Below, piece by piece: positions 7,901-55,892 of a stretch of DNA of 64,000 bases. Every line of letters starts with the position of its first letter. The first letter of the stretch is position 1. Source of the DNA: an uncultured bacterium. GTDB lineage: Bacteria > Patescibacteriota > Minisyncoccia > Phycocordibacterales > GWA1-40-21. The translations under genes and the position numbers were made by a program. The stretch lies in assembly GCA_963804975.1 (NCBI GenBank), contig CAWDSG010000002.1, positions 277,015 to 341,014 on the forward strand, read 5' to 3'. The notes beneath the pieces are model-generated. The model did no database searches and was not told the DNA's origin. It worked only from the letters and a program-made list of their open reading frames with translations.

Positions 7901-8995
7901 GTTATTCCATCAAACGCAACCAATCAGAATATTTTCTGGAACACTGACAATGCGGAAGTTGCCACAGTTTCAAGCGGAGTAGTCACGCCGATTGCCGCAG
8001 GTACAGCGAATATCACAGTCACCACAGTTGATGGAGGATTTGTCGCCACAAGCACAGTCACGGTTTCCGGCGGCAGTTCAACAACCACACCGGTACTCAC
8101 TTCAATAACCATTTCACCTTTGAAGCCAACAATCGTTGCCGGAAATAAAAAAACCTTTACGGGAACTACGCTTGATCAGGACGGCAATCCGTTTGCAACA
8201 GCAATCGCATGGCAAAGTTCCAACACTTCAATCGGCACCATTAATTCAAGCGGAATATTTACAGCGGTTTCAGCGGGAACGACAACAATCACTGCGACTG
8301 CCGGGACACTCTCAGCATCAACAGTTGCAACAGTCACTTCAGCAAGAAATACAAACGGAGGTGGCGGCGCAACAAACAATACTCCTCCTACGATCGTGAT
8401 CATTGGCGATAATCCTGCCACAATCACAGTCGGTGGAACTTACATTGACGCAGGAGCAAATGCATTCGACAGCACAGACAACACAATCACTTCAAGAATA
8501 ATAACTTCAAATAATGTAAACACGGCGATGGCCGGAACATACACGGTGTATTATTCAGTGACCGATAGTTATGGAAATACAACAACAGCAACCCGTATGG
8601 TAAATGTCATTGGTTCAAATAATAACGGAACAAATACAAACAACACTGTAACTTCGGAGACGTCGCAAACTAATGGTGGCGAATCATCAAATTCTTCAGC
8701 AACATTACAAAATAATGGCGGAGGAACAGAAGTCACTTCAGGAACCGGAAACGGAACAATTCCATTCATTGATTTGGGAAATATACTTCCGTCAAAAGTT
8801 TCCACAACGACTTATGTTGCAACAAGCACTGCTTCATCGGGAGTCGCTCAGGTTTCAACCTCAACAAAAGCAGGTTTGCTTGCGGCAGTCGGCCTTGCGC
8901 TCTCAAGCATTCCTAAGAATCTGATTGCGATTATTCTCTCAATTCTTGTGCTGTTGATTGCAGGATATATAATCTACAAGATACAGGAAGATTAA
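1931..8995 (+). CDS. giant membrane-anchored surface protein (2354 aa): Gly-rich N-terminal region, multiple DUF5011-like Ig domains, Big_2 and Big_3-like Ig domains, FN3-like segment, beta-helix-like NST repeat region, C-terminal TM anchor
   Basis: N-terminal TM/signal (ITTIVLLTIVVSFGFVSFAHA). Repeated ILGxNPxTIxxGxxYxDAGATAxDxxDG...ATGTYxVxYxxxDxxGN units (DUF5011-like). Repeated ...LSSISISPL...TTLDQxGNPF...WxSSNTSVGTIDASGxFTA units (Big_2-like). Four Y..GDSLDITGL.VTGTYSDGSTS units. C-terminal hydrophobic anchor LIAIILSILVLLIAGYIIYKIQED. Start uncertain (alternative ATG at 1963). Confidence 0.8.
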   Translation: MCIRFLASKIIMFSHYQKISRFLGNITTIVLLTIVVSFGFVSFAHAATTTLSYTGDPIDSWTVPQGVTSLTVSLTAGGGGGAGGAFTFGGGGGGGAGASFSQTISVYPGQIIAYVVGAGGVGGTSGFINFAGGSGNDGGYTTFGTTTAFGGKGGQGATYGHPNGGQGGLAGGIGGNAGTKGDDYIGQRSCGGNGGSSLIGNAGLGGCGASGWSTLPTAGTNGAGGGAGSGWAYYEHPDIKDAGANGGNGLIVLSYTQDLVAPIITILGSNPLTLEASSTEIYIDAGATAFDDVDGTTTATTTFNNVNLAATGTYSVVYSATDKAGNTATSTRIVNVVDDIAPVITAPDTQVFEATGATTTPILIQAVATDGFDPNPVITYNPHDFTLGTTTVVWTATDSSGNSATTSSLVVIKDTTAPAIVLNGSSTMSLMIGDTYTELGATAYDLVDGTTIVNTIGTVDTNATGTYQILYTSSDNSGNTAITSRTVIVTATPDTTAPVITILGNNPETITLGSIYTDAGATALDNIDGDITSRIASSSDVNTSATGTYSVIYTVSDNAGNGATSTRIVDVVATAPILSSISISPLNPTLAVSATTTFVATTLDQYGNPFATTTAWNSSNTSVGTIDASGIFTALSEGTTTVTGTTGTLSTSTMVTVTPVSVLDTTAPTTPVITGVSATSTIVNPAIISWTDSTDSQSGLAGYLYEITIVHPSMIATTTGGLTFITATTTSFDLASITSGKPNPYWFNVAAIDNAGNISTTTSYGPLLVSDSQVLIENSNLGGTFYTIYSPTLVNSLLAPVATTTGTTTITNSTLSTFWDVNNSSITNTTINDVNLDAVTVTNSTLINSDIARCIVINSLVKNYYARDCHIAYSVLDPSTLYDFINSTSTNSQIYASDIYDSVISNHSYIATSTITGSTIDSSTITLSTIATSTITGSVIANSDITLSTITDSTVSSSTLTNVVSASSTITNTVLSDATTTNAVIHDGIIDSGTIIIGGNTYVITTPTLISSLVPTVVVTLASTTPVSGNITVGQSSVDLAEFTFTNNSATSGEINQITLTRTGSSTDTTLSNVYLYQGSNQIASGILSSGQIVFLNNSGLFTIASNTSVTVAIKADVSPSANVGNTIGFSLTQITAHSLAVSAVFPLTGSLMTVVGTTSVPVTSILVNWTSEVTTVDVGSTLQMTATVNPSNATNKNVIWSVANGTGSATIDSTGVLTGVATGTVMIAASSTDGSGVFGTTTITVIPSGSLVPVITVIAPNPSPNDNSVLWIHGAHLGFATSSYTAIFSQNSSVVATTSISSTNPSGSDLEANFPIGISAGVYQVSISDQYGTSNSFDLTVTSSGTVIPTLSSITITTPADKLIYTLGDSLDITGLVVTGTYSDGSTSTEPLTLADVSGFDSSAASSSETLTVTYQTQTTSYNVAINPTLMLDSIAITHPADKLIYTVGDSLDITGLVVTGTYSDGSTSTLPVSVSNIFGFDSSIPNPSETLTIAYEGKYVSLFATATYTITINAGPSGPIAVTGVTVSPTSLNLTAGGATGNLTASVIPSNATNQNIFWNTDNAEVATVSSGVVTPIAAGIANITVTTEDGSFVATSTVTVTATSTPPPTLQSIAITSPATKLSYNIGDTLDITGLAVTGTYSDGSTSIEPISVSNISGFDSSAANPNEVLTVTVSGLTTNYTVVINAGSVSTPVLSSISISASPLTLAVGSTTQFTATTLDQFGDSIQATVNWSSSDTLVGDIDASGLFTASATGTTVVTGTAGTYSATITVTVSDFSDQTPVLSSISISAPSLTLAVGSTTQFTATTLDQFGDSIQATVNWSSSDTLVGDIDASGLFTASATGTTVVTGTAGATTISATVTVSVISTGGGSTPVPTLSSIAITSPANKLSYNINDSLDITDLVVTGTYSDGSTSIEPISVSNISGFDSSTTTPSEVLTINVSGLTTTYTITVNAGPSGPIAVTGVTVSPTSLNLTAGGATGNLTASVIPSNATNQNIFWNTDNAEVATVSSGVVTPIAAGTANITVTTVDGGFVATSTVTVSGGSSTTTPVLTSITISPLKPTIVAGNKKTFTGTTLDQDGNPFATAIAWQSSNTSIGTINSSGIFTAVSAGTTTITATAGTLSASTVATVTSARNTNGGGGATNNTPPTIVIIGDNPATITVGGTYIDAGANAFDSTDNTITSRIITSNNVNTAMAGTYTVYYSVTDSYGNTTTATRMVNVIGSNNNGTNTNNTVTSETSQTNGGESSNSSATLQNNGGGTEVTSGTGNGTIPFIDLGNILPSKVSTTTYVATSTASSGVAQVSTSTKAGLLAAVGLALSSIPKNLIAIILSILVLLIAGYIIYKIQED
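6481..6672 (+). repeat. about 190-nt intragenic repeat, first copy (near-identical to 7807..7998)
   Basis: tccaagcggtccaattgcggtcacaggagttacggttagtccgacgtcgcttaatcttacagcaggcggagcaaccgg... repeated 1326 nt downstream. The two shadow ORFs 6598..6786(-) and 7924..8112(-) share an identical C-terminal stretch (...VVTVIFA.PAAIGVTTPLETVATSALSVFQKIF). Confidence 0.8.
7064..7507 (+). repeat. tandem duplication (2 x 267 nt) inside the giant gene
   Basis: gtcggttcaaccacacaatttacagcaacaacactggatcagttcggtgattcaatacaagcgacggtaaattggtcaagctcagatacc... occurs at 7064 and again at 7331. About 170 nt are near-identical with single-nucleotide differences. Shadow ORFs 7102..7344(-) and 7369..7656(-) translate identically. 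Confidence 0.8.
7807..7998 (+). repeat. second copy of the 6481..6672 intragenic repeat
   Basis: Near-identical nucleotide sequence; encodes AGPSGPIAVTGVTVSPTSLNLTAGGATGNLTASVIPSNATNQNIFWNTDNAEVATVSSGVVTPIAAG in both copies. Confidence 0.8.
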
Positions 8996-10082: not shown

Positions 10083-11216
10083 ATGGAACCAACAAAGAAA
10101 TCTATGAAATGGCTGTGGGGAATAGTTGTGATTATTGCCATTATTATTCTTGCGCTTGCTTCAAGCAAGCCAAAAGAAACAGGACCGATTAAAATTGGGT
10201 TTATTGCTCCTCTTACCGGAGATGCTGCTAGTTTAGGACAAAACTCTCGTGCTGCTGTTGAAATATCAGTAAAAGAAATAAATGATGCAGGAGGTATTAA
10301 TGGCCGTCCGCTTGAAATTATTTATGAAGATGGACAATGTTCAGGCAAGCCAGCATCTGATGCTGCCAACAAACTTATAAATATAGACAAAGTTCCCGTA
10401 ATTATTGGAGGTCTTTGTTCCGGAGAAACCTCTTCTTTCACTGATGCAGCAGAAAAATCAAAAACAGTAGTTCTTTCTTATTGTTCTTCAGCTCCAGCTT
10501 TAACTTTTGCAGGAGATTATATATTCAGAAATTATCCGTCAGATTCTTATCAAGGATCTTTTGCGGCTGATTATATTTATAATAAACTGGGCAAAAGAAA
10601 TGTTGCTGTTCTTTATGTAAATACTGACTACGGAGTTGGTATTAAAGATGTATTTGATAAAAAATTCAAGGAACTTGGTGGGAACCTTCTTGATGAGGAA
10701 AGTTTTAAACAAAACAGTTCGGATTTAAGAACAGAATTAACAAAAATTAAATCTGTCAAACCGGAACTAGTTTATTTTATTGGTTATACTGAAGAAACCA
10801 TACCTGGAATAAAACAAGCAAAAGATTTGGGAATTAATGTGCCGTATTTTGGAGCTGATGCATGGGGTGATTCAAAAATATGGAGTACTCTTGGCTCTTT
10901 GGCTGAAGGAGATATGTATACGATGGTTTATACTCCTTTAAACGATGCTTTCAAATCAAACATGCTGGCAAAAATTGGGAACAATGAAATCACGGTTTGT
11001 ACTCCGCAAGCATATGATGCTGTAAAAATTATAGCTCAAATTATTACAAAAGTAGGTACAAATTCGGAAGCAATAAAAAACGAGCTTTATAAAACAGAAT
11101 ACAAAGGTGGTGTGTCTGCTCCTGACATAAAATTTGATTCAAATGGAGATGTAAATATTCCTTATGTTCTTAAAACTGTTAAAGATGGAAAATTTGTTTT
11201 ACTTCAAAATATTTAA
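10083..11216 (+). CDS. Liv-type (Peripla_BP_6) ABC substrate-binding protein, paralog 1, N-terminally anchored
   Basis: N-terminal anchor/signal MEPTKKSMKWLWGIVVIIAIIILALASS, then IKIGFIAPLTGDAASLGQ...GGINGRPLEIIYEDGQC, typical of LivJ/LivK-family SBPs. Confidence 0.8.
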   Translation: MEPTKKSMKWLWGIVVIIAIIILALASSKPKETGPIKIGFIAPLTGDAASLGQNSRAAVEISVKEINDAGGINGRPLEIIYEDGQCSGKPASDAANKLINIDKVPVIIGGLCSGETSSFTDAAEKSKTVVLSYCSSAPALTFAGDYIFRNYPSDSYQGSFAADYIYNKLGKRNVAVLYVNTDYGVGIKDVFDKKFKELGGNLLDEESFKQNSSDLRTELTKIKSVKPELVYFIGYTEETIPGIKQAKDLGINVPYFGADAWGDSKIWSTLGSLAEGDMYTMVYTPLNDAFKSNMLAKIGNNEITVCTPQAYDAVKIIAQIITKVGTNSEAIKNELYKTEYKGGVSAPDIKFDSNGDVNIPYVLKTVKDGKFVLLQNI

Positions 11217-11245
11217 AATTTATTTATTAATTATTAATTAAAAAC

Positions 11246-12394
11246 ATGGAGCCAAATAAAAATTCAATGAAGTGGGTATGGACAGCGATTGTCATAGTAA
11301 TTGTCGTAATCATTATCGGTGTTTTTACATCCCAAAGTTCGGCAAAGACGGTAAAAATCGGCTTTATCAGTCCGATGAGCGGCCAATCTGCGGCATATGG
11401 AGAATATGCAAGAAGAGCTTTTGAAATCGGCTTGGACGATTGGAATTCAACACATACCTATAAAATGGAAGCGGTTTATGAGGATGGAAAATGCGCTCCG
11501 GCAGATGCCGCCACAGCTGCCAATAAATTGATAAATATAGATAAGGTAAATTTCATAATGACGTTTTGCACGGGGGAAACGAATGCTGTCGTGCCTATAA
11601 CCGAAAGTCATAAGGTTATTCTTTTGACTGCCGGAACCACTGCTCCGAATATCACAAAAGGCAAATATGTTTTCAGGAATATCGGTTCTGTGGGAAGCGG
11701 TCTGCCTAAACTGACGCAGATGGCCTATGACTTCAATAAAAAAATCGCTTTGATATCCGAGAATACCAACTACGCGATTTCATCGAAAGACGCGTTCAAA
11801 CAGCAATTTACTGCTCTTGGCGGAACGGTTGTATTTGATGAATCATTTGACTCAAAAAGTATGGATTTCAGGACAATCATTTCTAAATTAAAGAGTGCCG
11901 GTATTTCCTCTGTTTTTGTCGTTGTTCAAGCACTTGATAATTCTGGATTATTATTCAAGCAGATGAAAGAGCTAAATTATCATCCTCAAATTTTTTCTAC
12001 GGAAGCTGCAATTAGCGACAAATCTCTAGAAAAGTACATAACGGAAGGATATGAGAATATTATTGAAGGAGCAATTCTCATCACTCCTTACTTCGACAGG
12101 ACAAATTCAATAGCGGCTCACTTGTTAGGTGTGTATCAAGACAAATATCAATCAACAAAAGGCCCTATTCCTGAAGAATACCTAGCGACGCATTATGATG
12201 CTGTTTTTTTGCTCGGAGACGCTTCAATGAGTGTCGGGACAAATTCGGATTCAGTCAGGCAATATTTCCTGACAAAAATTAAAAATTGGCAGGGGGCAAT
12301 CGGCAGTTTCAGCTTTGATGCAACCGGCGATGCCGTAACAAGCGTAGTCGCCGAAACCGTTAAAGGCGGAAAAATTGTTCCCCTCACAAAATAA
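11246..12394 (+). CDS. Liv-type ABC substrate-binding protein, paralog 2
   Basis: Same architecture: TM anchor, KIGFISPMSGQSAAYGE...YEDGKCAPADAATAANKLINIDKV. Confidence 0.75.
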   Translation: MEPNKNSMKWVWTAIVIVIVVIIIGVFTSQSSAKTVKIGFISPMSGQSAAYGEYARRAFEIGLDDWNSTHTYKMEAVYEDGKCAPADAATAANKLINIDKVNFIMTFCTGETNAVVPITESHKVILLTAGTTAPNITKGKYVFRNIGSVGSGLPKLTQMAYDFNKKIALISENTNYAISSKDAFKQQFTALGGTVVFDESFDSKSMDFRTIISKLKSAGISSVFVVVQALDNSGLLFKQMKELNYHPQIFSTEAAISDKSLEKYITEGYENIIEGAILITPYFDRTNSIAAHLLGVYQDKYQSTKGPIPEEYLATHYDAVFLLGDASMSVGTNSDSVRQYFLTKIKNWQGAIGSFSFDATGDAVTSVVAETVKGGKIVPLTK

Positions 12395-12419
12395 TTATTA
12401 ATTATTAGTTTAAAATATT

Positions 12420-13550
12420 ATGGACCAAACAAAAAGCAATGCAGGGAAGTGGGTGTGGGGGATTATCATAATAATTATTTTGATTGTAATTTTTTCTCTA
12501 TCCGGTGGGAAAAAAGAAACCGGCCCGATAAAAATTGGGGTTATTACGCCTCTTTCTGGGGACACTGCTTTATATGGGGAGGTGGTAAGAAATAGCATTG
12601 AATTGGCAGTAAAAGACATAAATCTATCTGGCGGAATAAACGGCCGACAAATACAAACGATATACGAAGATAGCAAATGTTCGGGCAAGGAAGCTGCTAC
12701 CGCTGCACAAAAATTAGTTAATATAGATAAGGTTAAATATATCATTGGCGACTTTTGCAGTGGAGGAGTTCTTAGCGAAATTCCAATAACAGATCCGGCA
12801 AAAGTTTTTGTTATATCTCCTTCAGCATCAGCGCCTAAATTGTCAGGAATAAGCAAATATTTTGTCAGAAATTCTCCTAGCGATTCTATCACAGGAATTA
12901 TTCTTGCTGATTATCTTTTAAAAATGAAATATAAATCAGTAGCGATTATATCCGAGCAAACCGATTATGCTCAGGGTATAAGAGATGTATTTATAGCACA
13001 AGCTCAGAAAGATAATCTAACTGTCACAGCTAATGAAAATTTCGTCTCGGGAGTAACCGATTTTCGTTCTCAGCTTTCAAAGATAAAAATTCAAAATCCT
13101 GATGTATTATTTATTAATCCTCAGAGTCCGGTTAGCTTAGTGCAAATTGCCGAGCAAGCAAGGGTACTTGGCATTAAATCTCAATTTGTCGGGTCATTGG
13201 GCGGAACTGATCCAAATCTATATACAAAATACACTCAAGGTATGATTTTTGCCGATTTGACCGGTTTAACAGGTGATAAAGGCAAAGAATATATGAATAA
13301 GTATATTGCAGCGTATAATGTTGCTCCTAATATTCCGTTATATGATGGGGCAGCGTATGATGATGTTTACTTGATTACGCAAGCCATATCTTCTGTTGGA
13401 GATGATTCCACTAAAGTTGCGGAATATTTGCGAGCAATGCCTAGCTACACTGGCGTCCTTGGTACATATCACTTTGATAAAAATGGGGATCTCGTCGGAG
13501 CCGGTATAGTAATGCAAAAAGTATCTGGTAACAAGGTAATTGAATTATAA
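12420..13550 (+). CDS. Liv-type ABC substrate-binding protein, paralog 3 (closest to paralog 1)
   Basis: KETGPIKIGVITPLSGDTALYGE...GGINGRQIQTIYEDSKCSGK. Confidence 0.8.
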   Translation: MDQTKSNAGKWVWGIIIIIILIVIFSLSGGKKETGPIKIGVITPLSGDTALYGEVVRNSIELAVKDINLSGGINGRQIQTIYEDSKCSGKEAATAAQKLVNIDKVKYIIGDFCSGGVLSEIPITDPAKVFVISPSASAPKLSGISKYFVRNSPSDSITGIILADYLLKMKYKSVAIISEQTDYAQGIRDVFIAQAQKDNLTVTANENFVSGVTDFRSQLSKIKIQNPDVLFINPQSPVSLVQIAEQARVLGIKSQFVGSLGGTDPNLYTKYTQGMIFADLTGLTGDKGKEYMNKYIAAYNVAPNIPLYDGAAYDDVYLITQAISSVGDDSTKVAEYLRAMPSYTGVLGTYHFDKNGDLVGAGIVMQKVSGNKVIEL

Positions 13551-13636
13551 AAAATCAAAAACCTCTCAAAAAGAGGTTTTTGATTTGGTAATTTTATGAT
13601 AAAATATGAATTCAATATAAAATTTACACTGTAAAT

Positions 13637-14503
13637 ATGGATTATTTAATTCACCTTGCGATTCTGATAGGAATTTATGTAATACTCGGTATTTCGCTCA
13701 ACCTTGTCGTGGGTTATACCGGCCTGCTTTCTGTTACCCAAGCCGCTTTTTACGGAATCGGCGCTTACACCACGGCGATACTTCTGACGACTACAGGAAT
13801 GAATTTTTTCCTGTCGGTCATTGTCGGAATAATAATCACGGCGATTGCCAGCTTGCTTATCGGCTATGTCTTGTCCAAATTCAAAGACGATTATTATGCA
13901 CTCGGTTCCTTCGGTTTCAATATCATCGTTTACAGCATATTCTTAAATTGGCAAAGTTTTACCAGAGGTCCTCTCGGCATTCCGGGAATAAAAAGGCCGG
14001 AAATTTTCGGTTTCAGTTTCAATGAAAATATTTATTTTCTGATTCTCGTCGTTGTCATTGCGGTGATAATTTATTACATCGCAAAATTCCTAGTGAACTC
14101 GTCTTTCGGCAGAGTTTTGAAAACAATAAGGGAAGACGAAGAAGCGATTCAGGTTTTTGGATACAATACTTTGTTTTTCAAGCTGACTATCTTTGTCATC
14201 GGCGCCTGTATGGCAGCGGTTGCCGGTTCGCTTTTTGCCACATACATCACTTACATTGACCCGTCATCTTTTGCTTTAGCCGAATCAATCTTCATTCTTT
14301 CAATAATTATTTTGGGCGGACTTTCAAATAATAAAGGCGCTGTCATCGGGGCTGTTTTTCTGGTCCTATTGCCCGAAATCCTTCGATTTGTGGGCTTTTC
14401 TTCGGACATTGCAGCCCAAATGCGCCAGGTGACTTATGGCCTGATTTTGATATTATTAATGCTGTACAGGCCGCAAGGTTTGATAGGCGAGTATAAGATT
14501 TAG
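13637..14503 (+). CDS. livM: branched-chain amino acid ABC transporter permease (LivM family)
   Basis: Multi-TM protein; GYTGLLSVTQAAFYGIGAYTTAIL is characteristic of the LivM N-terminus. Confidence 0.75.
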   Translation: MDYLIHLAILIGIYVILGISLNLVVGYTGLLSVTQAAFYGIGAYTTAILLTTTGMNFFLSVIVGIIITAIASLLIGYVLSKFKDDYYALGSFGFNIIVYSIFLNWQSFTRGPLGIPGIKRPEIFGFSFNENIYFLILVVVIAVIIYYIAKFLVNSSFGRVLKTIREDEEAIQVFGYNTLFFKLTIFVIGACMAAVAGSLFATYITYIDPSSFALAESIFILSIIILGGLSNNKGAVIGAVFLVLLPEILRFVGFSSDIAAQMRQVTYGLILILLMLYRPQGLIGEYKI

Positions 14504-14540
14504 TTTAGTAAATTTATTAATTATTAATTTAAACTTTGAT

Positions 14541-15680
14541 ATGAAAAGCGTAAAAATTTGGTTCGGTGTAGTAATTGTAATCTTACTGGTTTTGTTAATT
14601 ATAACTCAAACAAAACAAAGCGCTTCGGACAAAACAATAAAAATCGGTTTCATAGGAGCTTTAAGCGGTAACGCATCGGCATTGGGTATTCCTCCCAAAC
14701 AAGCAATTGAAATTGCTGTTCAAGATATAAACGATAATGGCGGTATAGGCGGAAAAAAATTGGAAATTGTCTATGAAGATGGCAAATGCACCGCAAAAGA
14801 TGCTGTTTCCGCAATAAATAAACTAATTAATATAGATAATATAAATATAATTATCGGCGGACAATGCAGTTCTGAAACACTCGGAGCGGCACCTATTGCA
14901 GAATCAAACCATGTTCTTTTAATCTCTCCTATGGCAATGAGCCCGCAAATTACAGGGTCTGGAGATTTTATTTTTAGAACAGTTTATTCAGATCAATTAA
15001 CAGCAGAAAAGCTTGCGACATACGCAGTACAAAATCTTGGTGTTAAAAAAGTGGCTATGCTATTTGAAAAAACCGATTATTCACAGGACTATAAAAAGGC
15101 ATTCCTGAATAAATTCATTGCTCTTGGCGGAGAAGTCGTTTCAGAAGAAGATTATTCGTCAGATGTAACCGATTTAAAAACCGAAGTATCAAAAATAAAG
15201 GCGTCAAATCCGGACGCTGTTGTATTTGTGCCGCAAACCGAGGCCAAGGAAATACTAGGTTTGAATGTGCTAAACGAATTCACTCCAAAAATGAAAGTTT
15301 TATCAAGTATTGTTTTGGAGAAACAGTCGGTATTGGATTTGTCAAAAAATCTTAACCTTAATCTATATTATTCAATACCGGTTTATGACACAGGATCTGA
15401 TGCCGCCAAAAAACTTTTTAACGAATATACCGCAAAATACGGGAAGGTGGATGGAGTTCCGTTTCAAATGTTAAATTCTTATGACACCGTATATCTCTTG
15501 AAATATTTGGTTGAGAATAACGGAACTGATCCAATTAAACTTAAAAATTCTCTGTACAAAGTTAATGGATGGCAGGGAGCGTCAGGAGTATTTAGATTCG
15601 ATAAGAATGGAGACAGGATTTCAGACAACATCGTAATTAATGGCGTTAAAGACGGTAAAATTGTTAGTATAACGAAATAA
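14541..15680 (+). CDS. Liv-type ABC substrate-binding protein, paralog 4
   Basis: TM anchor plus IKIGFIGALSGNASALGIPPKQAIEIAVQDINDNGGIGGKKLEIVYEDGKC. Confidence 0.75.
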   Translation: MKSVKIWFGVVIVILLVLLIITQTKQSASDKTIKIGFIGALSGNASALGIPPKQAIEIAVQDINDNGGIGGKKLEIVYEDGKCTAKDAVSAINKLINIDNINIIIGGQCSSETLGAAPIAESNHVLLISPMAMSPQITGSGDFIFRTVYSDQLTAEKLATYAVQNLGVKKVAMLFEKTDYSQDYKKAFLNKFIALGGEVVSEEDYSSDVTDLKTEVSKIKASNPDAVVFVPQTEAKEILGLNVLNEFTPKMKVLSSIVLEKQSVLDLSKNLNLNLYYSIPVYDTGSDAAKKLFNEYTAKYGKVDGVPFQMLNSYDTVYLLKYLVENNGTDPIKLKNSLYKVNGWQGASGVFRFDKNGDRISDNIVINGVKDGKIVSITK

Positions 15681-15707
15681 ATCTGGCTTGCCAGTTGAAA
15701 TTAAATA

Positions 15708-16460
15708 ATGCAAGTCCTAAAAACCAAATCAATTACAAAACATTTTAGCGGGGTGCATGCCGTGGATAATCTTTCTATTTCTTTTGAAAGCGGGAAAATC
15801 ACCGGCATCATCGGGCCGAACGGCTCGGGCAAATCCACCTTGGTGAATTTATTTTCCGGAATCGTGCCTATCGATAGCGGAACGGTTGTTTTTGACAATG
15901 CAGAGGAATTAAAAAGCATAAAAACTTATGAAATAGCGGATTATGGAATCGTCAGGACTTTTCAGGAAGTCAGATTGTTTGAGCAGATTCCGGTTTTGGA
16001 TAATATTTTGGCGGTCATCACAAAAAGAAATGTCATCGGTTCTATTTTTGAAAAGCACAAGAAATTCCACTTGGACAGAGCGGAAAATGTGCTGAAAAGA
16101 GTCGGACTTTGGGAAAAAAGGCACGAACTGGCAAAAAATCTTTCTTACGGACAGAGAAAACTTTTGGAAATTGCCAGAGTTCTCGCAATGCTGAGCGGGG
16201 AAGGTGTGGAAGGGGAAATATTTTTGTTTGACGAGCCGTTTGCCGGACTATTCCAAGAAATGAAAGATGTCGTCCTCCAAATCATAAAAGAACTGAAAGA
16301 AAAAGGAAAAACCGTCGTTCTTATAGAACATAATATGGAAATCATCAGAAATATCTGCGACCATGTTTTTGTGCTGGATAGCGGTAAGCTATTGGCGCAA
16401 GGATCGCCCGATGAAGTCCTCTCAAAAAAAGAAGTTATTGAGGCGTATTTGGGGAAGTAA
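15708..16460 (+). CDS. livG: ABC transporter ATP-binding protein (LivG-like)
   Basis: Walker A GPNGSGKST, signature LSYGQRKLLEIARVL, Walker B IFLFDEPFAGL. Confidence 0.8.
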   Translation: MQVLKTKSITKHFSGVHAVDNLSISFESGKITGIIGPNGSGKSTLVNLFSGIVPIDSGTVVFDNAEELKSIKTYEIADYGIVRTFQEVRLFEQIPVLDNILAVITKRNVIGSIFEKHKKFHLDRAENVLKRVGLWEKRHELAKNLSYGQRKLLEIARVLAMLSGEGVEGEIFLFDEPFAGLFQEMKDVVLQIIKELKEKGKTVVLIEHNMEIIRNICDHVFVLDSGKLLAQGSPDEVLSKKEVIEAYLGK

Positions 16461-16495
16461 TTGACAAATAATTTAATAAACCATAATATAAAAAT

Positions 16496-17611
16496 ATGGA
16501 ACAAAATAATTTTTCGTTAAAAAATATCTGGGTCTGGATAGTTATTATATTGGTAATCGTTTTGATTCTGGTTTTCGGCAATAATGCAAATAAAAACGAA
16601 ATAAAAATCGGAATGATTTTACCGTTAACCGGGACAGCAGCTCAATATGGGGAACAGCTGAAAGATGGAGCACAGATTGCAGAAAGTGAATTAAAAAATA
16701 CCGGAGCTAATGTAAAAATTTTCTATGAAGATAGCGCAGCAGATCCGACAACAGGTCTTTCCGCTTACAGAAGATTGGTTGATGTAGATAAAGTTGATTA
16801 CATCGTTTCTGCCATGACTCGATCTACACTGCCTTTGCTTGATTCATTAAATAAGGACAAAATTCCCATGATAATGACTCTTGTCGCCGGAGATTGGGAT
16901 AAAACAAAAACTAAATATGCCTTGCGATTCTATCCTACAGCAAGACAATATGTCAGAGGAGATAATTCCGATAAAATTTTGAACGGACTGAAATCAGTCG
17001 GTGTTATAAATGTTAATGATGCGTACGGTCAATCTGTCGTAAAAGAAGTTCAGACTTTTGCAAAAGAAAAAGGCTTTACAGTCGGAATGGTAGAAAGCTA
17101 TTCGGCAAATAATACCGACTACCGTTCAAGTTTATTGAAATTAAAAAATAGCGGTGTGGATTCGATCTTGATGATATCTTCAAGCCCGGTTGAGCTATCC
17201 GGCATAGCAAAACAATATAAGGAATTGAATATCAAACAAAAGCTTTTTGATGCTTCAGTCGGCTTGTCCAATCCAATAATAAGAGAGCAAAATAAAGATA
17301 TTCTTGAGGGCGTAGTCACTAAAGCGACAAAAGCTGAATTAACCAATAAAGATAAATCAGCCCAAGATTTCTTTGATAAATATGAGAAACTATACAATAG
17401 CGAACCGTATTTTCCCGGAATATTTGGCTATGAATCCATAAGATTGATAAATGACTTTAATTCTCAAAATGGCTCTGATTTTGTTGAAAAAGCTTCCAAT
17501 TTGAAATCTATCTCAACAATAATGGGCGATATAAAGATCGACAATTACCAAGAAATAAATCCACCGATATATAATACTGTCATAAGAAATGGAGAGTTGG
17601 TGGAGTTCTAA
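16496..17611 (+). CDS. Liv-type ABC substrate-binding protein, paralog 5 (divergent)
   Basis: TM anchor plus IKIGMILPLTGTAAQYGEQLKDGAQIAESEL...KIFYEDSAADPTTG. Confidence 0.7.
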   Translation: MEQNNFSLKNIWVWIVIILVIVLILVFGNNANKNEIKIGMILPLTGTAAQYGEQLKDGAQIAESELKNTGANVKIFYEDSAADPTTGLSAYRRLVDVDKVDYIVSAMTRSTLPLLDSLNKDKIPMIMTLVAGDWDKTKTKYALRFYPTARQYVRGDNSDKILNGLKSVGVINVNDAYGQSVVKEVQTFAKEKGFTVGMVESYSANNTDYRSSLLKLKNSGVDSILMISSSPVELSGIAKQYKELNIKQKLFDASVGLSNPIIREQNKDILEGVVTKATKAELTNKDKSAQDFFDKYEKLYNSEPYFPGIFGYESIRLINDFNSQNGSDFVEKASNLKSISTIMGDIKIDNYQEINPPIYNTVIRNGELVEF

Positions 17612-17638
17612 AAGGATATAAAATTAATAATTTAAAAT

Positions 17639-18733
17639 ATGAAAAAAATTTTTACTTGGTTAGTTGGTATTATAGCTGTGATTATTATAATTTTGATTTT
17701 TCAGAATAATACGACAAATCAGTCGGAGATAAAGGTTGGTGTCATCGGTCATTTCAGCGGCAATTACGCAGATTATGGAGTACCGATGAAAAATTCTATA
17801 GAGCTAGCAGCAGACGCGATTAATAAAAGCGGAGGCATAAATAACAGAAAAGTCCAATTGTATATTGAAGATGATGCCAGCAGTGCGTCTACAGCCGCAA
17901 CGGCAATGAACAAATTGATTTCTGTTGACAAGGTAAATTATATTTTATCTGCACAAGCGAGTGCAATAACTGCTGCGATTACTCCCATTGCACAAAGCAA
18001 CAAACGAATCTTGATGATTACATTAGGTTCTGCTCCTGACCTGACGAAAGTCGGCAATTATATTTTCCGTTCTGTTCCGTCCGATAGCTATCAAGGAATA
18101 AAAATGGTTGATTTGATAAATAATGATTTGAAATCCAAAAAAGTTGCCGGTTTGTATATAAATGACACTTATGGCGCGGGAATCAGGGATATCATAAATG
18201 AAAATCAAAAAGTTGCTAATGCAGATACCGAGATGTTTGAATCGCAAGCTACTGACGTAAGAACTCAATTATTGAAAATCAAACAAAGCGGTGCCGATAC
18301 ATTGGTAATCGTCGCTCATACTGAATATCCTGCGATTTTTAAACAGATAAAAGAATTGAGTTTGAATGTAAAAATTATCGCTTCGGAAACATTCAAAGAC
18401 AAAAATATTTTAAAGCAATGCGGTTCTAATACAGAAGGAGCAATGGTTACATTTATGGCGGATCAGAAAGATTATGTTGACTTCAATGATAATTACCAAA
18501 AAATGTTTAATACGGCTCCGTCGGCGTATAGCATGTATGGTTATGACGGGTTTATTGCTTTGGCTAAGGCAATTGAAAATAGCGGAGATAATGTTGAGAA
18601 AGTTAAAAACAATTTATCCAAAGTGCAATTCAACGGAGCTAGCGGTAATGTCGGCTTTGACGAAAATAGGAATAGAACAGGAATCACATATTCTGTTTTT
18701 AAAGTTGTTAATGGAGAATTTGTAAGATTATAA
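17639..18733 (+). CDS. Liv-type ABC substrate-binding protein, paralog 6
   Basis: TM anchor plus IKVGVIGHFSGNYADYGVPMKNSIELAADAINKSGGINNRKVQLYIEDDASSAST. Confidence 0.7.
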   Translation: MKKIFTWLVGIIAVIIIILIFQNNTTNQSEIKVGVIGHFSGNYADYGVPMKNSIELAADAINKSGGINNRKVQLYIEDDASSASTAATAMNKLISVDKVNYILSAQASAITAAITPIAQSNKRILMITLGSAPDLTKVGNYIFRSVPSDSYQGIKMVDLINNDLKSKKVAGLYINDTYGAGIRDIINENQKVANADTEMFESQATDVRTQLLKIKQSGADTLVIVAHTEYPAIFKQIKELSLNVKIIASETFKDKNILKQCGSNTEGAMVTFMADQKDYVDFNDNYQKMFNTAPSAYSMYGYDGFIALAKAIENSGDNVEKVKNNLSKVQFNGASGNVGFDENRNRTGITYSVFKVVNGEFVRL

Positions 18734-19523: not shown

Positions 19524-20622
19524 ATGTCATTATCAATTGGAATTGTCGGGCTTCCGAATGTTGGCAAGAGCACGCTGTTTAACGCTCTTACGAAAAAAGC
19601 GGTGGCTTGCGAGAATTATCCTTTTTGCACCATAGATCCGTCCGTGGGCGTTGTTGCCGTACCTGATGAAAGAATTTGGAAGCTTTCAAAATTTTCAAAA
19701 TCTGCGAAAACGATTCCGGCTGCGGTTGAGTTTGTTGATATCGCCGGACTTGTAAAAGGCGCGTCGGCAGGCGAGGGGCTTGGCAATCAATTTCTCACAA
19801 ATATCAGAGAGACCGATGCTATTGCCGAAGTCGTGAGAATTTTTGAGGATGAAAATATTATTCATGTTGCAAACAAAATAGATCCGCTCTCGGATATTGA
19901 AACCATAAATCTCGAGCTCGTTCTTGCCGACCTGCAGACGGTTTCAAAAAGAATTTCAAATTTAGGAAGCGAAATAAAAAGAGGAAATAAAAATGCTGTT
20001 ATAGAAAATAGCGGGCTTACAAAAATCAAGAACTGCCCTTGAGGCAGGGAAACTTGCGAGCACAGTTGTTTTGGAAGAAAAAGAATTGGTGGAAGTAAAA
20101 AAGCTTTGCCTTCTAACAATGAAGCCGATTCTTTATGTTCTAAACAAAAAAGCCGGAGGAAAAAATCTGGACGAAACAAAGGACGAAAAATTTCAAAAGC
20201 TTTTGAAATTTTTCGCCGACACACATTCTAAATATGTGATCGTAGATGCTGGAATTGAGCAGGAACTCAAAGATCTGGAAGGAACCGACAAAAAGGAAAT
20301 GCGGGAAGGGCTTGGTGTGAAGGACGACGGTATTGATAGTTTGATTAAAGCCGGGTACGATCTGCTCGGACTCATTACATTTCTTACGACAGGAGAAGAC
20401 GAAACTCGCGCCTGGACGATTAAAAAGGGTTGGACCGCACCAGAAGCCGGCACAGCTATTCACGGAGATTTCAAGGAGAAATTTGTCCGTGCAGAAGTAA
20501 TAGAATGGAATAAACTTTTAGAAGCTGGCTCATATGCAAACGCCCGTGAAAAAGGCCTGATACGGACGGAAGGAAAGGAATATATTGTAAAAGACGGCGA
20601 CGTGATTGAATTCAAGATATGA
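19524..20622 (+). pseudogene. ychF: ribosome-binding ATPase YchF (Obg-family GTPase), interrupted by a +1 frameshift near 20030-20042
   Basis: N-terminal [23 protein letters not shown]... in frame 0 ends at TGA 20040-20042. The C-terminal part ...[37 protein letters not shown]...TGEDETRAWTIKKGWTAPEAGTAIHGDF...EFKI continues in frame +1. The two pieces together give a full-length YchF. Confidence 0.7.
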
Positions 20623-21224
20623 TGAATAAAAAAGATATTAAAGATATTCAAGAAAAATATTTGAAAGAAATTAAAATTCCTGATAAAAAACCAGCACAGC
20701 AGATTTTCTTTTGTCCGGTGGGACTTGTCGGCGCCGGCAAAACCACAGTGACAAAACCGATATCGGAGACGCTCGGGCTTGTGCGCATATCAAGTGATGA
20801 ATTGAGAAAAATCTTGAAAGAAAACGGATACGATTATAGTTTTGTCAAGAAAATAGGTTTCAAAATAGCCAGTGAATTCGCAAAAAATGGTTTCAGTGTA
20901 TCTTTTGACATGGACTGTGGCAATCTAATAACGAAAAATTTTGTGGAAAACTTAGCAAAAAAATTGCACGCAAAAATATTTTTTGTCCATATTGATACTC
21001 CGGAAGATTATATTATTGAGAGATTGAAAAGACCTGAACCGTTAGGGCTCGTCAACGATCCTCAAATTATGATAGCCAATTATTACAATCAAAAAGAAAT
21101 ACGGTTGAAACAAAACACGAAATTTGGCTTCTTTTTCACTTTTGATCATTCGCGTCCAGACATAAATAAACAAATTTCCGATTGTATAAAGAAAATAGAA
21201 AAAGTGATCAGTTCAAAAAAATGA
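20619..21224 (+). CDS. P-loop NTPase / small-molecule kinase family protein
   Basis: Walker A FFCPVGLVGAGKTTV; size and layout resemble AAA_33/zeta-like kinases. ATGA overlap with the ychF stop. Confidence 0.5.
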   Translation: MMNKKDIKDIQEKYLKEIKIPDKKPAQQIFFCPVGLVGAGKTTVTKPISETLGLVRISSDELRKILKENGYDYSFVKKIGFKIASEFAKNGFSVSFDMDCGNLITKNFVENLAKKLHAKIFFVHIDTPEDYIIERLKRPEPLGLVNDPQIMIANYYNQKEIRLKQNTKFGFFFTFDHSRPDINKQISDCIKKIEKVISSKK

Positions 21225-22396
21225 AGATGTTCCTTATCGAAAATCTTAAAAAGCGGTATCCAAATAAAAATAAAAAAGTATTTGTTGGGCTTTCGGGCGG
21301 AGTGGATAGCTCTGTTTCTGCCGCATTGCTTAAAAAACAAGGATACAATATAACGGGAGTTTTTATAAAGGTTTGGCAACCGGAATTCCTGCCTACCGGC
21401 CAGGCAGGTTTTAATTGTACTTGGCGGCAAGACAGATTGGACGCAATGCGAGTTTGCGCAAAATTAAATATTCCATTCATCACTTTGAATCTTGAAAAAG
21501 AATATAAAAAAGAAGTGGTGGATTATATGATAAATGAATATAAAGCCGGCAGAACTCCGAATCCTGATGTTATGTGCAATAAATATATAAAATTTGGCCT
21601 GCCCGGCCAGGGCGGTTTTTTTGACTGGGCAATGAAACGCGGAGCGGATTATGTTGCTACCGGTCATTATGCGCGGGTGGAAAAAATTAGCAATAAATAT
21701 CAATTGCTAGCCGGAGAAGACAAAAATAAAGACCAGTCATACTTTCTCTGGACGCTTACACAAAAGCAATTGAGTAAAACTCTTTTTCCAGTGGGCGATT
21801 TGGATAAGCCGGAAGTGCGGAAGCTTGCAAAAAAATATGGCCTAAGCACTGCAGTTAAAAAAGACAGCCAAGGACTTTGTTTTATTGGAAAAGTGGATAT
21901 GAAAGATTTTCTAAAGAATTATATAAAAGAGAAAAAAGGGAAAGTACTTGACGAAAAAGGCAAAGTGATAGGTGGGCATAACGGCGCGTTTTATCTGACA
22001 ATCGGCCAGCGCCACGGCTTTAAAATCTTGGAAAAAAACCCGAATGATTCGCCGTATTACATAATTGATAAAGACATCAAAAACAATACTATTATCGTAT
22101 CGCATAATTCTTTTAAAAAGTTAGAAAACGAATCAAAAATAGTTAAATTAAAAGATTTGAATTGGATTTTGGGAGATGAGCCGGATTTGAAGAAAAAATA
22201 TTCCGCCAGAATACGATATAGAGCTCCGCTTGAAGAATGCGAAGTTCACCATGGCGAACTTGGGAAATACGAGCTTCATTTCACAAATCCGCAAAAAGCC
22301 ATAACAGAAGGCCAATCAGCGGTTATTTATGACGCCCGTCCGAACGGTTCATCCGGGCGGGGAGAAATATGTTTGGGAGGAGGAATAATTGTGTGA
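21221..22396 (+). CDS. mnmA: tRNA-specific 2-thiouridylase MnmA
   Basis: PP-loop VFVGLSGGVDSSVSAALL, then ...EYKAGRTPNPDVMCNKYIKF...DYVATGHYAR...NKDQSYFLW...GQSAVIYD...CLGGGII. The ORF-track start at 21182 overlaps the upstream gene; ATG 21221 gives a 4-nt ATGA overlap. Confidence 0.85.
   Translation: MKMFLIENLKKRYPNKNKKVFVGLSGGVDSSVSAALLKKQGYNITGVFIKVWQPEFLPTGQAGFNCTWRQDRLDAMRVCAKLNIPFITLNLEKEYKKEVVDYMINEYKAGRTPNPDVMCNKYIKFGLPGQGGFFDWAMKRGADYVATGHYARVEKISNKYQLLAGEDKNKDQSYFLWTLTQKQLSKTLFPVGDLDKPEVRKLAKKYGLSTAVKKDSQGLCFIGKVDMKDFLKNYIKEKKGKVLDEKGKVIGGHNGAFYLTIGQRHGFKILEKNPNDSPYYIIDKDIKNNTIIVSHNSFKKLENESKIVKLKDLNWILGDEPDLKKKYSARIRYRAPLEECEVHHGELGKYELHFTNPQKAITEGQSAVIYDARPNGSSGRGEICLGGGIIV
21388..21408 (+). 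repeat. 21-nt GC-rich hairpin element CCTGCCTACCGGCCAGGCAGG, in frame within mnmA (encodes LPTGQAG)
   Basis: Exact 21-mer shared with 50527..50547 and 59063..59083; 19/21 identity with 25892..25912. 7-bp stem CCTGCCT/AGGCAGG with loop ACCGGCC. Confidence 0.85.
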
Positions 22397-24365: not shown

Positions 24366-26279
24366 TTGGTTATGTTATCAAACGAAATTCGCCAAAGATA
24401 CCTGAAATTCTTCGAAAAAAGGGGACATAAAATAATCCCTTCGGCTTCGCTTGTGCCTGAAAATGATCCTTCTTCGCTTTTTATAAGCGCCGGAATGCAG
24501 CCGCTTGTACCTTACCTTTTAGGCGCAAAACATCCTGCCGGCAAAAGGATTGTGGATGTCCAGAAATGCGTCCGTACGATAGATATAGACGAAGTTGGAA
24601 ATAATCGCCATCTGACTTTTTTTGAAATGCTTGGAAACTGGTCTCTTGGAGATTATTTCAAAAAAGAAGCGATTGAATGGAGTATGGAATTTCTGACAAG
24701 CAAGAAAGAGGGGCTCGGCCTTGATCCAAAACGCCTTTATGTAAGTGTATTCAAGGGAGAGGGCGAAATTCCGCGCGATGAAGATTCTATAAAATATTGG
24801 AAGGAAAATTTTGAAAAACATAAGATTACTGCAGATGTTGCTGGAACGGACGAAACGATAAAAAATAATGTGAGAATTATTCCTCTCGGTAAAGATGATA
24901 ATTTTTGGATTGCTGGGAATACCGGTCCGTGCGGCGGAGATACCGAAATGTTTTATGATGTCGTCGGAAAGGGAAAAGTGGAAGGAAAATTCCAAAACCT
25001 GGTAAAATCCGGCCGGATTATTGAAATTTGGAATGATGTTTTTATGGAATTCAATAAAACAGCCAACGGAAAATATGAAAAACTTGCAAAACCGAATGTA
25101 GACACCGGAATGGGACTTGAAAGAACTTCTGTGGTGATGCAAGTAAAAAATAATGTTTATGAAACGGATATTTTTGCGCCGATAATCGCCGAGATAAAAA
25201 AACTTGCGAAAAATTACAACGAAAGATATGCGAGAATAATTGCAGACCATGTCCGCGCCGCGACTTTTATGATTGCCGATGGCGTTACTCCGTCAAATAT
25301 TGAGCAGGGATATGTTCTTCGGAGATTATTGAGAAGAGCAGTCAGATGCGCGGACCAGATAAGTTTAGTTCAAGAAAATAAAACCGAGCGCAGCAATCTT
25401 TCTTATATAGCCCAACTATTTGTAGAACAGAATATGTCTGCATATCCTAATCTTGCAACCGAATCGGAAAGGATTTTCAAGGAAATCGAGGTGGAAGAGC
25501 AAAAGTTCAGAAAAACATTAAAAGATGGATTAAATGCTCTTAAAAAAATATTTAATTTGGCTATAGGAGGAGTGGATCCTGAAAATCTTCCCGCTGGAAT
25601 GAAACTTGAGGGTAATACTATTAGAGTTGATGGTAAAATGATTTTTAATATTTATCAAACTTATGGATTTCCACCAGAACTTTCGCAAGAAATAATGACT
25701 AATTGGGGATTAAAATTTGATGATGAAACTATGAGAGAATGTCAAGAATCTTTTAAAAAACACCAAGAAATTTCAAAAGCTGGTTCGGAACAAAAATTCA
25801 AAGGCGGATTGGCAAGTACCGGTGAAATGGAGACGAAATATCACACAGCTACGCATTTATTGCTCGCATCATTACGAAAAGTTCTTGGTGGCCTGCCTGC
25901 CGGTCAGGCAGGGGAAATTGTGCAGAAGGGAAGCAATATCACGGCGGAAAGGATGCGTTTTGATTTCAATTGGCCGGAAAAATTGACCGCCGAACAACTA
26001 AAAGCTGTAGAAAAACTCGTGAACGAAAAAATTACCGAGAAAATTCCCGTTCAAATGCTTGAATTGCCGAAGGAAGAAGCGAAGAAAATCGTTTCAACCC
26101 TTTCTTTTGACTTGTCCAAATACGGCGATGTTGTGAAAGTTTACAAGATAGGGGATTTCAGCGCAGAATTCTGCGGCGGCCCTCACGTCAAAAATACCGG
26201 CGAATTGGGGCATTTCAAAATCATTAAAGAAGAAGCTTCAAGTGCGGGAGTGAGAAGAATCAAAGCGGTTTTGGAATAG
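24366..26279 (+). CDS. alaS: alanine--tRNA ligase, short form lacking the C-Ala domain
   Basis: N-terminus SNEIRQRYLKFFEKRGHKIIPSASLVPENDPSSLFISAGMQP, editing-domain HxxxH/...CGGPHV motifs, end ...GVRRIKAVLE. 637 aa against about 870 aa for canonical AlaS. Confidence 0.85.
   Translation: MVMLSNEIRQRYLKFFEKRGHKIIPSASLVPENDPSSLFISAGMQPLVPYLLGAKHPAGKRIVDVQKCVRTIDIDEVGNNRHLTFFEMLGNWSLGDYFKKEAIEWSMEFLTSKKEGLGLDPKRLYVSVFKGEGEIPRDEDSIKYWKENFEKHKITADVAGTDETIKNNVRIIPLGKDDNFWIAGNTGPCGGDTEMFYDVVGKGKVEGKFQNLVKSGRIIEIWNDVFMEFNKTANGKYEKLAKPNVDTGMGLERTSVVMQVKNNVYETDIFAPIIAEIKKLAKNYNERYARIIADHVRAATFMIADGVTPSNIEQGYVLRRLLRRAVRCADQISLVQENKTERSNLSYIAQLFVEQNMSAYPNLATESERIFKEIEVEEQKFRKTLKDGLNALKKIFNLAIGGVDPENLPAGMKLEGNTIRVDGKMIFNIYQTYGFPPELSQEIMTNWGLKFDDETMRECQESFKKHQEISKAGSEQKFKGGLASTGEMETKYHTATHLLLASLRKVLGGLPAGQAGEIVQKGSNITAERMRFDFNWPEKLTAEQLKAVEKLVNEKITEKIPVQMLELPKEEAKKIVSTLSFDLSKYGDVVKVYKIGDFSAEFCGGPHVKNTGELGHFKIIKEEASSAGVRRIKAVLE
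25892..25912 (+). repeat. variant copy of the 21-nt hairpin element (CCTGCCTGCCGGTCAGGCAGG), in frame in alaS (LPAGQAG)
   Basis: Two substitutions relative to the other copies; they extend the stem to 8 bp (CCTGCCTG/CAGGCAGG) with loop CCGGT. Confidence 0.8.
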
Positions 26280-55859: not shown

Positions 55860-55892
55860 AAACCCCGAGGTTCCACCTCGGGGTTTTTGTCA
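55860..55892 (+). terminator. rho-independent terminator (CCCCGAGG hairpin family)
   Basis: aaAACCCCGAGGttccaCCTCGGGGTTTTTGTCAACA. Confidence 0.7.

Follow-up and report, generated by a model that had tools for sequence, protein, structure and literature searches.

Why would several unrelated housekeeping genes of one bacterium carry the same GC-rich hairpin, in the same reading frame? The question arises from a stretch of 64,000 nucleotides of an uncultured bacterium of the Patescibacteriota (assembly GCA_963804975.1, contig CAWDSG010000002.1, positions 277,015 to 341,014; hereafter the window), where the 21-nucleotide (nt) sequence CCTGCCTACCGGCCAGGCAGG recurs inside protein-coding genes. 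Here, we propose that the six sites occupied by this sequence and its variants represent a family of GC-rich palindromic repeats of very small size, which would act as selfish DNA and would have been inserted and horizontally spread. We give this reading a probability of about 0.7.

Copies in the window and empty sites in relatives

Both strands of the window were searched for CCTGCCTACCGGCCAGGCAGG with up to three mismatches allowed, and the chance level was taken from 100 dinucleotide-preserving shuffles. Five matches were found on the forward strand and none on the reverse, for an expectation of 0.00 in the shuffles (n = 100). Hence, the copies are not there by chance. Three are exact, in the genes of the tRNA 2-thiouridylase MnmA (21388-21408, residues 56 to 62 of the protein), the primase DnaG (50527-50547), and the CTP synthase PyrG (59063-59083, in the linker that joins the synthetase domain to the glutaminase domain), and all three encode LPTGQAG. 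The alanine-tRNA ligase AlaS has the variant CCTGCCTGCCGGTCAGGCAGG at 25892-25912 (two mismatches, LPAGQAG), and ribosomal protein S11 has the variant TCTGCCTGCCGGCAAGGCAGG near its N terminus, at 31679-31699 (three mismatches, LPAGKAG). An earlier note on this DNA, made from the sequence alone, had reported the three identical 21-mers and the 19/21 variant of alaS, all of which are in place. Its total of four was too low: there are five full copies, S11 being the addition, and one short relative in mnmA, picked up in a scan for GC-rich islands. The short relative has the core CCTGCCCGGCCAGG at 21598-21611, occupies 21598-21612, and encodes GLPGQ. As the note had said of its copies, orientation and codon phase are shared. 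Each full copy lies in a long open reading frame (ORF) of the forward strand in the phase C|CTG CCT ... GCA GG, and the short relative has the same strand and phase.

The note was also right about composition and fold. The element has 76% GC, against 39.9% for the window, and when folded as single-stranded DNA it forms a stem of 7 to 8 bp with a loop of 5 to 7 nt (-6.1 to -8.6 kcal/mol), much like the 7-bp stem and 7-nt loop first drawn. The short relative has a weak fold of its own (z -0.15). About 93% of the window is coding, and the density is 6 copies per 64 kb, all of them intragenic singles. A 13-nt stretch at 142-154, CCTGCCCGCCAGG, resembles the short unit of MnmA and lies within an ORF reading YPARQAS; it may be a decayed relative or a chance match.

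How did these copies arise? Two syntenic relatives, L151 and L153, with about 70 to 77% nucleotide identity to the window in conserved genes, retain empty sites. At the first MnmA site, L153 reads GAA TTT|TTT GAA and the window GAA TT(21 nt)T TTT. In AlaS, GGA GGA GAA of L153 stands against GGT GG(21 nt)G GAA of the window. In S11, L151 has ACA GAC GAT and the window ACA GA(21 nt)A GAT; without the 21 nt, the codon counts of the flanks are equal. These three copies are precise 21-nt insertions with no target duplication; at the MnmA junction there is a T on both sides, which leaves no room for one. The short relative, at the second MnmA site, is a net insertion of 15 nt with respect to the empty TTC GGC|GGA TTT of both L151 and L153.

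Protein homologues give the same picture. MnmA, AlaS, and S11 each exceed their homologues by seven residues. The AlaS insert is absent from 119/119 homologues, and each of the two MnmA inserts is missing in 118/119 (at the second site, 118 read KF-GGFF). None of the 119 homologues of PyrG (73 to 84% identity) has the heptapeptide, and three residues (e.g., TKG) stand in its place; PyrG has thus gained 21 nt and lost 9 nt, for a net gain of four residues. In DnaG, 15 residues separate two conserved anchors that are 6 residues apart in 135/149 representatives, and LPTGQAG is found in 0/150. Over three of the host genes, 357/360 homologues are free of the motif, the exceptions being the three proteins of the window genome itself; one MnmA homologue, P0137, has an 18-nt form only (see below). 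The net insertion of seven residues suggested by the earlier note therefore stands for MnmA, AlaS, and S11 and does not for PyrG, with its four. Its view that this is copied DNA and not convergent protein evolution is supported by the empty orthologous sites at the nucleotide level, by closest homologues lacking the heptapeptide, and by identical GC-rich codons in unrelated genes. Furthermore, about 80 kb of related genomes (L120, L121, and L151 to L155) contain one family member, against six in the 64 kb of the window. Three copies identical at all 21 bases, set against zero to one copy in the relatives, indicate in our reading a recent burst of the element in the lineage of the window.

The inserts lie where proteins can be expected to tolerate them. 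In an AlphaFold model of MnmA (mean confidence score, pLDDT, of 80.6), the first insert is predicted within a coil spanning residues 50 to 66, with pLDDT below 50 at 61 to 65, and the second (residues 125 to 129) within a coil between helices 114-123 and 132-138. When the solved structure 2hma is aligned, gaps stand opposite both. Opposite the PyrG copy, the linker of solved CTP synthase 3nva has a gap, and the S11 copy is in the N-terminal tail. The variable, permissive loops invoked in the earlier note thus correspond to coil, low-confidence loop, or interdomain linker in MnmA and PyrG. The MnmA loop at 21388 also has other, unrelated inserts in the homologues P0143, P0159, P0146, P0192, and P0182 (e.g., YSAEAPKGR, PARMNKKEILNRSGG). 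Judging from this alignment, the loop is a general insertion hot spot, in which other mini-elements may be present.

Distribution, family structure, and reading frame

Is the element a peculiarity of this genome? One genome per species was scanned with the 19-nt pattern CTGCCTRCCGGYMAGGCAG, which gave at least 119 loci; the counts of this and of the metagenome scan are lower bounds. The bases flanking the pattern are C and G in about 115 of 122 matches, from which we conclude that these loci carry the same 21-nt unit and are not chance matches. Most have 30 to 45% GC, the reverse of the chance expectation for a motif rich in GC. By the record titles of the submitters, which also supply the taxon labels of metagenome-assembled genomes (MAGs), about 55 of the loci are from Bacteroidota, 24 from Patescibacteria, 10 from Planctomycetota, 8 from Ignavibacteria-type genomes, 8 from uncultured Gammaproteobacteria, and 5 from Omnitrophota, with singletons in other groups. 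Cultured Bacteroidota are among the carriers: two Arenibacter strains, Algoriphagus winogradskyi DSM 15360, Hyunsoonleella flava, Marinoscillum furvescens DSM 4134, Paucihalobacter ruber, and Aequorivita vladivostokensis KMM 3516. The exact variant of the window was found at no fewer than 120 loci of a metagenome collection, and 29 stretches of a viral collection match, one of them on a contig that has genes for terminase, protease, and capsid, as well as head-to-head and tandem dimers between genes. Among 50,697 records of cultured phages and 72,556 of plasmids there was no full copy, and only partial chance matches in GC-rich replicons turned up. The element is, as far as these records and their labels go, not specific to the window genome; its carriers include phage contigs and genomes under the labels of many phyla.

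Foreign copies are also found in frame in what we take, from the translations and without a family search, to be FtsW, MurB, TrmD, TsaD (twice, at different sites), ArgRS, FtsZ, SHMT, MetH, a DNA ligase, and a sensor kinase. The ArgRS of a Chitinophagaceae MAG (L045, 1230-1307) has 3.4 tandem units in frame, reading QAG-LPTGKAG-LPTGKAG-LPAGEAG, and suggests that units can expand by slippage within an essential gene. At the end of the tailed-phage contig that also has the dimers (L147, IMGVR_UViG_3300025106_000007), a perfect array of 11 units of CCATGCCTACCGGCAGGCAGG with a period of 21 nt extends over 3911-4142; it might represent a terminal repeat or an iteron-like array, or else a break in the assembly.

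Members of the family have constant arms (CCTGCCT and AGGCAGG) and a variable centre built around CCGG, where small indels give units of 18, 19, 20, 21, and 22 nt. The centre of 21-mers is RCCGGYM. There is a perfect 20-mer, CCTGCCTGCCGGCAGGCAGG, there are 19-mers, and there is an 18-nt perfect palindrome, CCTGCCTGCGCAGGCAGG. Members are numerous in some contigs, with 7 of them within 14 kb in L202. Intergenic repeats of the form gtcatt...aatc(tc), which we take to be published CGTC-tagged palindromes, are present in L040 (7290-7370 and 7860-7950), L049, L082, and L036, and the unit is sometimes nested in their loop (L040, L049, and L082). We also looked for larger elements bounded by half-sites, and this turned up only chance matches or homologous phage genes in GC-rich contigs.

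The constancy of the arms raises the possibility that the hairpin is a cis site for a conserved DNA- or RNA-binding factor, a 7-N7-7 inverted repeat comparable to CIRCE or parS, with a role in regulation, chromosome organisation, or mRNA handling. Arms that are invariant across phyla around a variable centre, the inverted-repeat architecture itself, and the dimers of phage contigs, which lie between genes and ahead of T-runs, all agree with such a site. Yet, the copies are scattered over unrelated genes and random intergenic places, with no fixed flank and no fixed position relative to gene starts or ends. Orthologous genes of relatives lack them, the downstream flanks have no general T-run, and orientation in non-coding DNA is random. 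We consider such a role quite unlikely.

What do the sites of insertion have in common? The base preceding the element is a purine in 67 to 88% of sites and the base following it a pyrimidine in 75 to 83%, in coding and non-coding DNA alike. The two preferences are symmetric and mutually uncorrelated. Only this purine^pyrimidine preference was seen in the flanks, with no conserved tetranucleotide at 122, 120, and 256 sites, and there was no longer conserved context apart from a few CGTC-like neighbours. The 256 sites showed no flank complementarity, and no target duplication beyond chance for 1 to 3 nt; repeats of 4 nt were present at 6 sites, for about 1 expected.

The lack of target duplication would also be expected if no enzyme were involved and an existing hairpin were copied to a new site by template switching or microhomology-mediated repair. 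Such copying might leave tandem arrays and partial copies behind, and these are seen (the 3.4 units of ArgRS in L045, L099, and the 11-unit array of L147). A native LPTG in L043, encoded by the similar CTGCCAACTGG, has a copy immediately upstream of it, and the flanking base equals the terminal base of the element more often than expected, with C at position +1 in 52% of sites. However, microhomology is at most 1 to 2 nt, and the flank rule, being symmetric and independent on each side, is more like site recognition. Template switching alone would also leave unexplained how the identical 21-mer first arrived in distant phyla. We keep an origin of this kind as a live alternative, although a very unlikely one in our view.

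The reading frame could be a property of insertion or of what survives it. Coding status in foreign loci was assigned from ORF length, without a gene caller; by this measure about half of the foreign copies are in a short-ORF, i.e., non-coding, context. The 21-mer is free of stops in 5/6 frames, and in 6/6 for the commonest variant, so that seven codons are added and the host gene stays open. Among long-ORF matches, the LPxGxAG frame accounts for 31/56 and 22/45, against 1/6 expected, and the remaining frames read PAYRPGR, CLPARQ, PAWPVGR, CLAGRQ, or LPGR*. Family members that had not been used to fetch the loci (non-ascertained copies) are informative about length: 10 of 12 in long ORFs have 18 or 21 nt, and of 11 in non-coding DNA ten are 20-mers and one is a 19-mer, with 0 of 11 divisible by three. 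The orientation of 112 non-coding copies has no bias to GC skew or gene direction, although the symmetric arms make orientation hard to define, and this suggests that the frame bias is not built into insertion. With lengths of 3n inside ORFs only and an excess of LP[T/A]G[Q/K]AG, we conclude that selection filters a length-variable, orientation-neutral repeat down to benign in-frame copies.

Selection could instead act for the LPxGxAG peptide itself, in keeping with the predominance of one frame and with a superficial likeness to sorting signals. A peptide would not account for GC-rich codons that are identical in every copy in a genome of 40% GC, nor for the non-coding half of the copies or those in other frames. 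A sortase-like LPXTG reading was rejected, since LPTG lacks the X residue and the host proteins are cytosolic. An artefact of assembly or sequencing would have to produce copies in cultured isolates and variants that stay in frame, and do so with different assemblers and in long-read assemblies, as contig naming and megabase records of the carriers imply. Peptide selection and artefact are both extremely improbable.

Recurrent sites, possible mechanism, and precedents

The two MnmA sites raise an additional question: why is an insert found at the same nucleotide more than once? The MnmA homologue P0137 (from L151) has the 18-nt palindrome at the exact junction of the first site, GAATT^. Its nearest relatives (85 to 87% identity) lack an insert there, as do the nearest relatives of the window. 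A second homologue, P0239 (from L155; about 70% identical in well-aligned columns), has the same 15-nt insert at the second site. Around the latter, identity between the window and L155 is about 93% over a stretch of about 110 nt, as counted by eye from the codon alignment (0.84 to 0.96 in sliding windows), against about 66 to 68% for the whole gene. When recombination tracts were sought at these sites, four-taxon site patterns were not skewed, and the result, although suggestive for the second site, was not significant. From the alignments, the recurrent sites could be either strong insertion hot spots or places where filled alleles were moved by short recombination tracts.

Such recurrence is where an uptake signal, or molecular drive of another kind, has most to offer. 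If DNA bearing the motif were preferentially taken up or recombined, it would replace alleles without the motif, and the same insert would be found at the same nucleotide in MnmA lineages that are not sisters. The high identity around the second site hints at a recombination tract, phages carry copies, and Patescibacteria depend on imported DNA and nucleotides. Known uptake signals are present at about one per kb, are shared clade-wide, and arise mainly by substitution. Uptake signal sequences (USS), DNA uptake sequences (DUS), and the cyanobacterial HIP1 resemble our element as short motifs that are frequent in genes in preferred frames, and their inverted pairs can terminate transcription. 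Here, in contrast, the copies are clean insertions, close relatives lack them, and syntenic or related loci have zero to one copy in about 80 kb. Moreover, the motif is identical in phyla with unrelated envelopes and pili, and the signal of recombination is weak. We regard an uptake or drive motif as unlikely. Of the three explanations put forward in the earlier note, a proliferating mini-palindrome, akin to the Rickettsia palindromic elements (RPEs) and shorter, fits best, while an uptake signal and a binding site fit worse.

How might a selfish mini-palindrome of this sort proliferate? We envisage that copies enter coding DNA as precise 21-nt insertions, mostly at purine^pyrimidine steps. 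With seven codons and no stop, the gene would stay open. Purifying selection would then keep multiples of three inside genes and favour sites in loops and linkers, as well as the frame LP[T/A]G[Q/K]AG, whose product is small, flexible, and devoid of Cys, Arg, Trp, and Tyr. Our best guess for the insertion itself is an activity acting in trans that recognises the hairpin or its sequence, as proposed for repetitive extragenic palindromes (REPs) and RAYTs. Phages and short tracts of homologous recombination between relatives may aid the spread. A bolder version of this proposal is that we are dealing with the smallest horizontally mobile element yet seen, a hairpin of 18 to 21 nt that either has a sequence-specific insertion machinery of its own or hijacks host factors. 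It would insert at purine^pyrimidine steps without target duplication, hit the same nucleotide again in independent lineages, cross phyla (Patescibacteria, Bacteroidota, Planctomycetota, Ignavibacteria, Omnitrophota, and phages), and routinely remodel loops of essential proteins. We find this version doubtful and offer it tentatively.

Several observations weigh against a selfish, horizontally spread repeat. Recurrence at the same nucleotide in non-sister lineages is not predicted by plain random insertion. The roughly 40 ORFs of the window that were scanned contained no transposase, integrase, or HUH/Y1 gene, and no transposase was found between paired copies in other loci. The RAYT-like genes that we did find, in L153 and L023, are flanked by hairpins other than the CCTGCC unit. 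The unit is without the GTAG or CGTC tag of described REPs, and the lack of replication-orientation bias in non-coding copies weakens a model in which single-stranded DNA of the lagging strand is used as in IS608. That the 21-mer is identical across phyla is difficult to account for unless there is a conserved partner, and we know of none. The reliance on ORF length for coding status in foreign loci also counts here, as do MAG labels supplied by the submitters and scan counts that are lower bounds.

The two RAYT-like genes encode Y1 transposases (PF01797, with a weak match to NF047646) and belong to the Paceibacterota relative L153 and to L023, labelled as Saccharibacteria. They are bounded by a 20-nt perfect inverted repeat in L153 (1202-1221 and 1894-1913) and by repeats of 24 nt at 88% in L023 (6767-6790 and 7511-7534). 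The layout is REPtron-like, with GTAG in one arm. With the L153 protein as query, tblastn gave L023 as its only match.

Are there precedents for such an element? Tagged palindromes of 20 to 40 bp (REPs) have been described in eight phyla, and those with a CGTC tag closely resemble one another from phylum to phylum and lack a dedicated transposase (Di Nocera et al. 2013, PMC3733652). Some REPs are intragenic, including RPE-4 and RPE-6 of Rickettsia, and dRS3 of Neisseria belongs to the same comparison group (PMC3733652). The earlier note knew of no intragenic mini-element of this kind in such genomes; these elements are a published precedent for mini-palindromes within genes (PMC3733652). Searches of the literature for the DNA and peptide strings of the element, and for peptides of repeats that look related, returned no paper, and searches by concept returned work on REPs and RPEs and nothing on this unit.

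With REPs, the unit shares a short GC-rich stem-loop within their limits (stem of 5 to 13 bp, loop of 2 to 20 nt), interspersion, occasional head-to-head or tandem dimers (here in a few loci, L130, L146, and L045), and some intragenic copies that add a few residues. With CGTC REPs in particular, for which there is no dedicated transposase, it shares the presence in several phyla. However, it lacks both an unpaired GTAG or CGTC tag and a CCA tail, and its stem does not start with AT. REPs, with tens to thousands of copies per genome, are mostly extragenic, typically 3' of genes, and often head-to-head dimers, whereas the window copies are all intragenic and those elsewhere about half non-coding. 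With 21 nt it is at the lower end of REP sizes, a scan of roughly 40 ORFs of the window gave no linked RAYT, and the unit is present in Patescibacteria, outside the coverage of that survey (PMC3733652). Behaviour like that of REPs without the GTAG or CGTC tag leads us not to assign the unit to a described family.

RPE-1-type elements are close in another respect, as selfish palindromes that lie in frame, at permissive sites of apparently functional genes, in a small AT-rich genome. They measure about 100 to 150 bp, give 30 to 50 residues, and are found in Rickettsia only. Our unit differs from them in its 21 nt (seven residues), in being common to several phyla, in its Paceibacterota host, and in lacking the CGTC tag seen in RPE-4 and RPE-6. 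Mitochondrial GC clusters, double-hairpin elements, and repetitive hairpin-forming elements (e.g., PMC2800124) are likewise GC-rich hairpins that invade compact AT-rich genomes, sometimes in coding DNA and in divergent hosts; they differ in being organellar, usually 30 to 60 nt long or double hairpins, and unrelated in sequence. Miniature transposable elements with inverted repeats (MITEs) and palindrome-associated transposable elements (PATEs) derived from IS200/IS605 share with the unit a non-autonomous nature and inverted-repeat or hairpin ends, and IS200/IS605 types insert without target duplication. Yet, MITEs have 70 to 300 bp, terminal inverted repeats of 15 to 30 bp, and a target duplication, unlike a 21-nt unit that makes none, and PATEs have two distinct subterminal hairpins and insert 3' of a fixed target of 4 to 5 nt, where the unit has only the purine^pyrimidine preference. 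The CCTGCC unit hence looks like an undescribed one, with a published conceptual precedent in REPs and RPEs.

If our proposal holds, a unit of 21 nt spreads through genomes, and apparently between phyla, as a harmless heptapeptide in essential genes, which would push down the lower size limit of mobile DNA. It would also provide a natural experiment on insertion-tolerant loops of proteins and a source of indels in the compact genomes of Patescibacteria, which, as far as the 64 kb examined show, are poor in classical transposons. Its carriage by cultured Bacteroidota makes the mechanism experimentally testable and might reveal a new hairpin-specific insertion activity. In the meantime, the motif can confuse alignment-based phylogeny and the annotation of domains in MAGs.

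Host genes and other features of the window

The five host genes are all on the forward strand. That of MnmA (21224-22396) has PDB matches to 2hma and 2der at E = 1e-90 and homologues of that name. The alaS gene (24372-26279) encodes a short alanine-tRNA ligase of the type of the candidate phyla radiation (CPR), whose homologues have PF01411 and PF07973. The syntenic genes of rpsK (31650-32105) in L151 and L153 are PF00411, Ribosomal_S11. The dnaG gene (50150-51907) has 17211 library proteins at E <= 1e-30, with a best score of 588.8 bits; we take it to be DnaG from the call of the earlier note, the N-terminal zinc-finger motif CPFHNEKTPSF, and the position before a sigma-70 gene, and no family tool gave that name. 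The homologues of pyrG (58185-59849) are named CTP synthase, and it has PDB matches. The best homologues of PyrG, MnmA, and AlaS are from Candidatus Paceibacterota, Taylorbacteria, and other MAGs of Patescibacteria, at 84% identity or less.

The window is an ordinary housekeeping region. It contains ychF, mnmA, and alaS, a ribosomal protein region with S13-S11-S4, rpoB and rpoC, and dnaG, the sigma-70 gene, pyrG, recR, and dnaB, part of these presumptive names being read from synteny and from ORF sizes. A scan of the window for Rfam families and tRNAs found none.

Another GC-rich hairpin, ACCCCGAGGTT(AA/CC)ACCTCGGGGT, is present in three copies (35106-35128, 36076-36098, and 55862-55884), 16 to 72 nt past gene ends and followed by TTTT in two cases and by TT in one. 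These hairpins look like terminators, and the repetition of their sequence hints at another family of small repeats; the 275 fetched loci contained none. A giant ORF of 2354 residues with internal repeats (1931-8995) has the 22-nt hairpin CGGTTCAacttcaatTGAACCG at 6868 and 7672, and its syntenic genes in relatives have Gly_rich_2, Big_2, and Bact_surface_Ig-like domains.

The ychF gene (19524-20622) is split by a frameshift near 20028-20045 into ORFs of 172 and 183 residues, from frame 0 (...GLTKIKNCP*) to frame +1, and L151 and L153 encode a single YchF of 365 residues. The frameshift may reflect a sequencing error, mark a pseudogene, or be programmed. Finally, six paralogous genes for solute-binding proteins (Peripla_BP_6) lie at 10083-18733 among permease and ATPase genes of an ABC transporter of the branched-chain amino-acid type, an array of binding proteins that is unusually large for a small genome.

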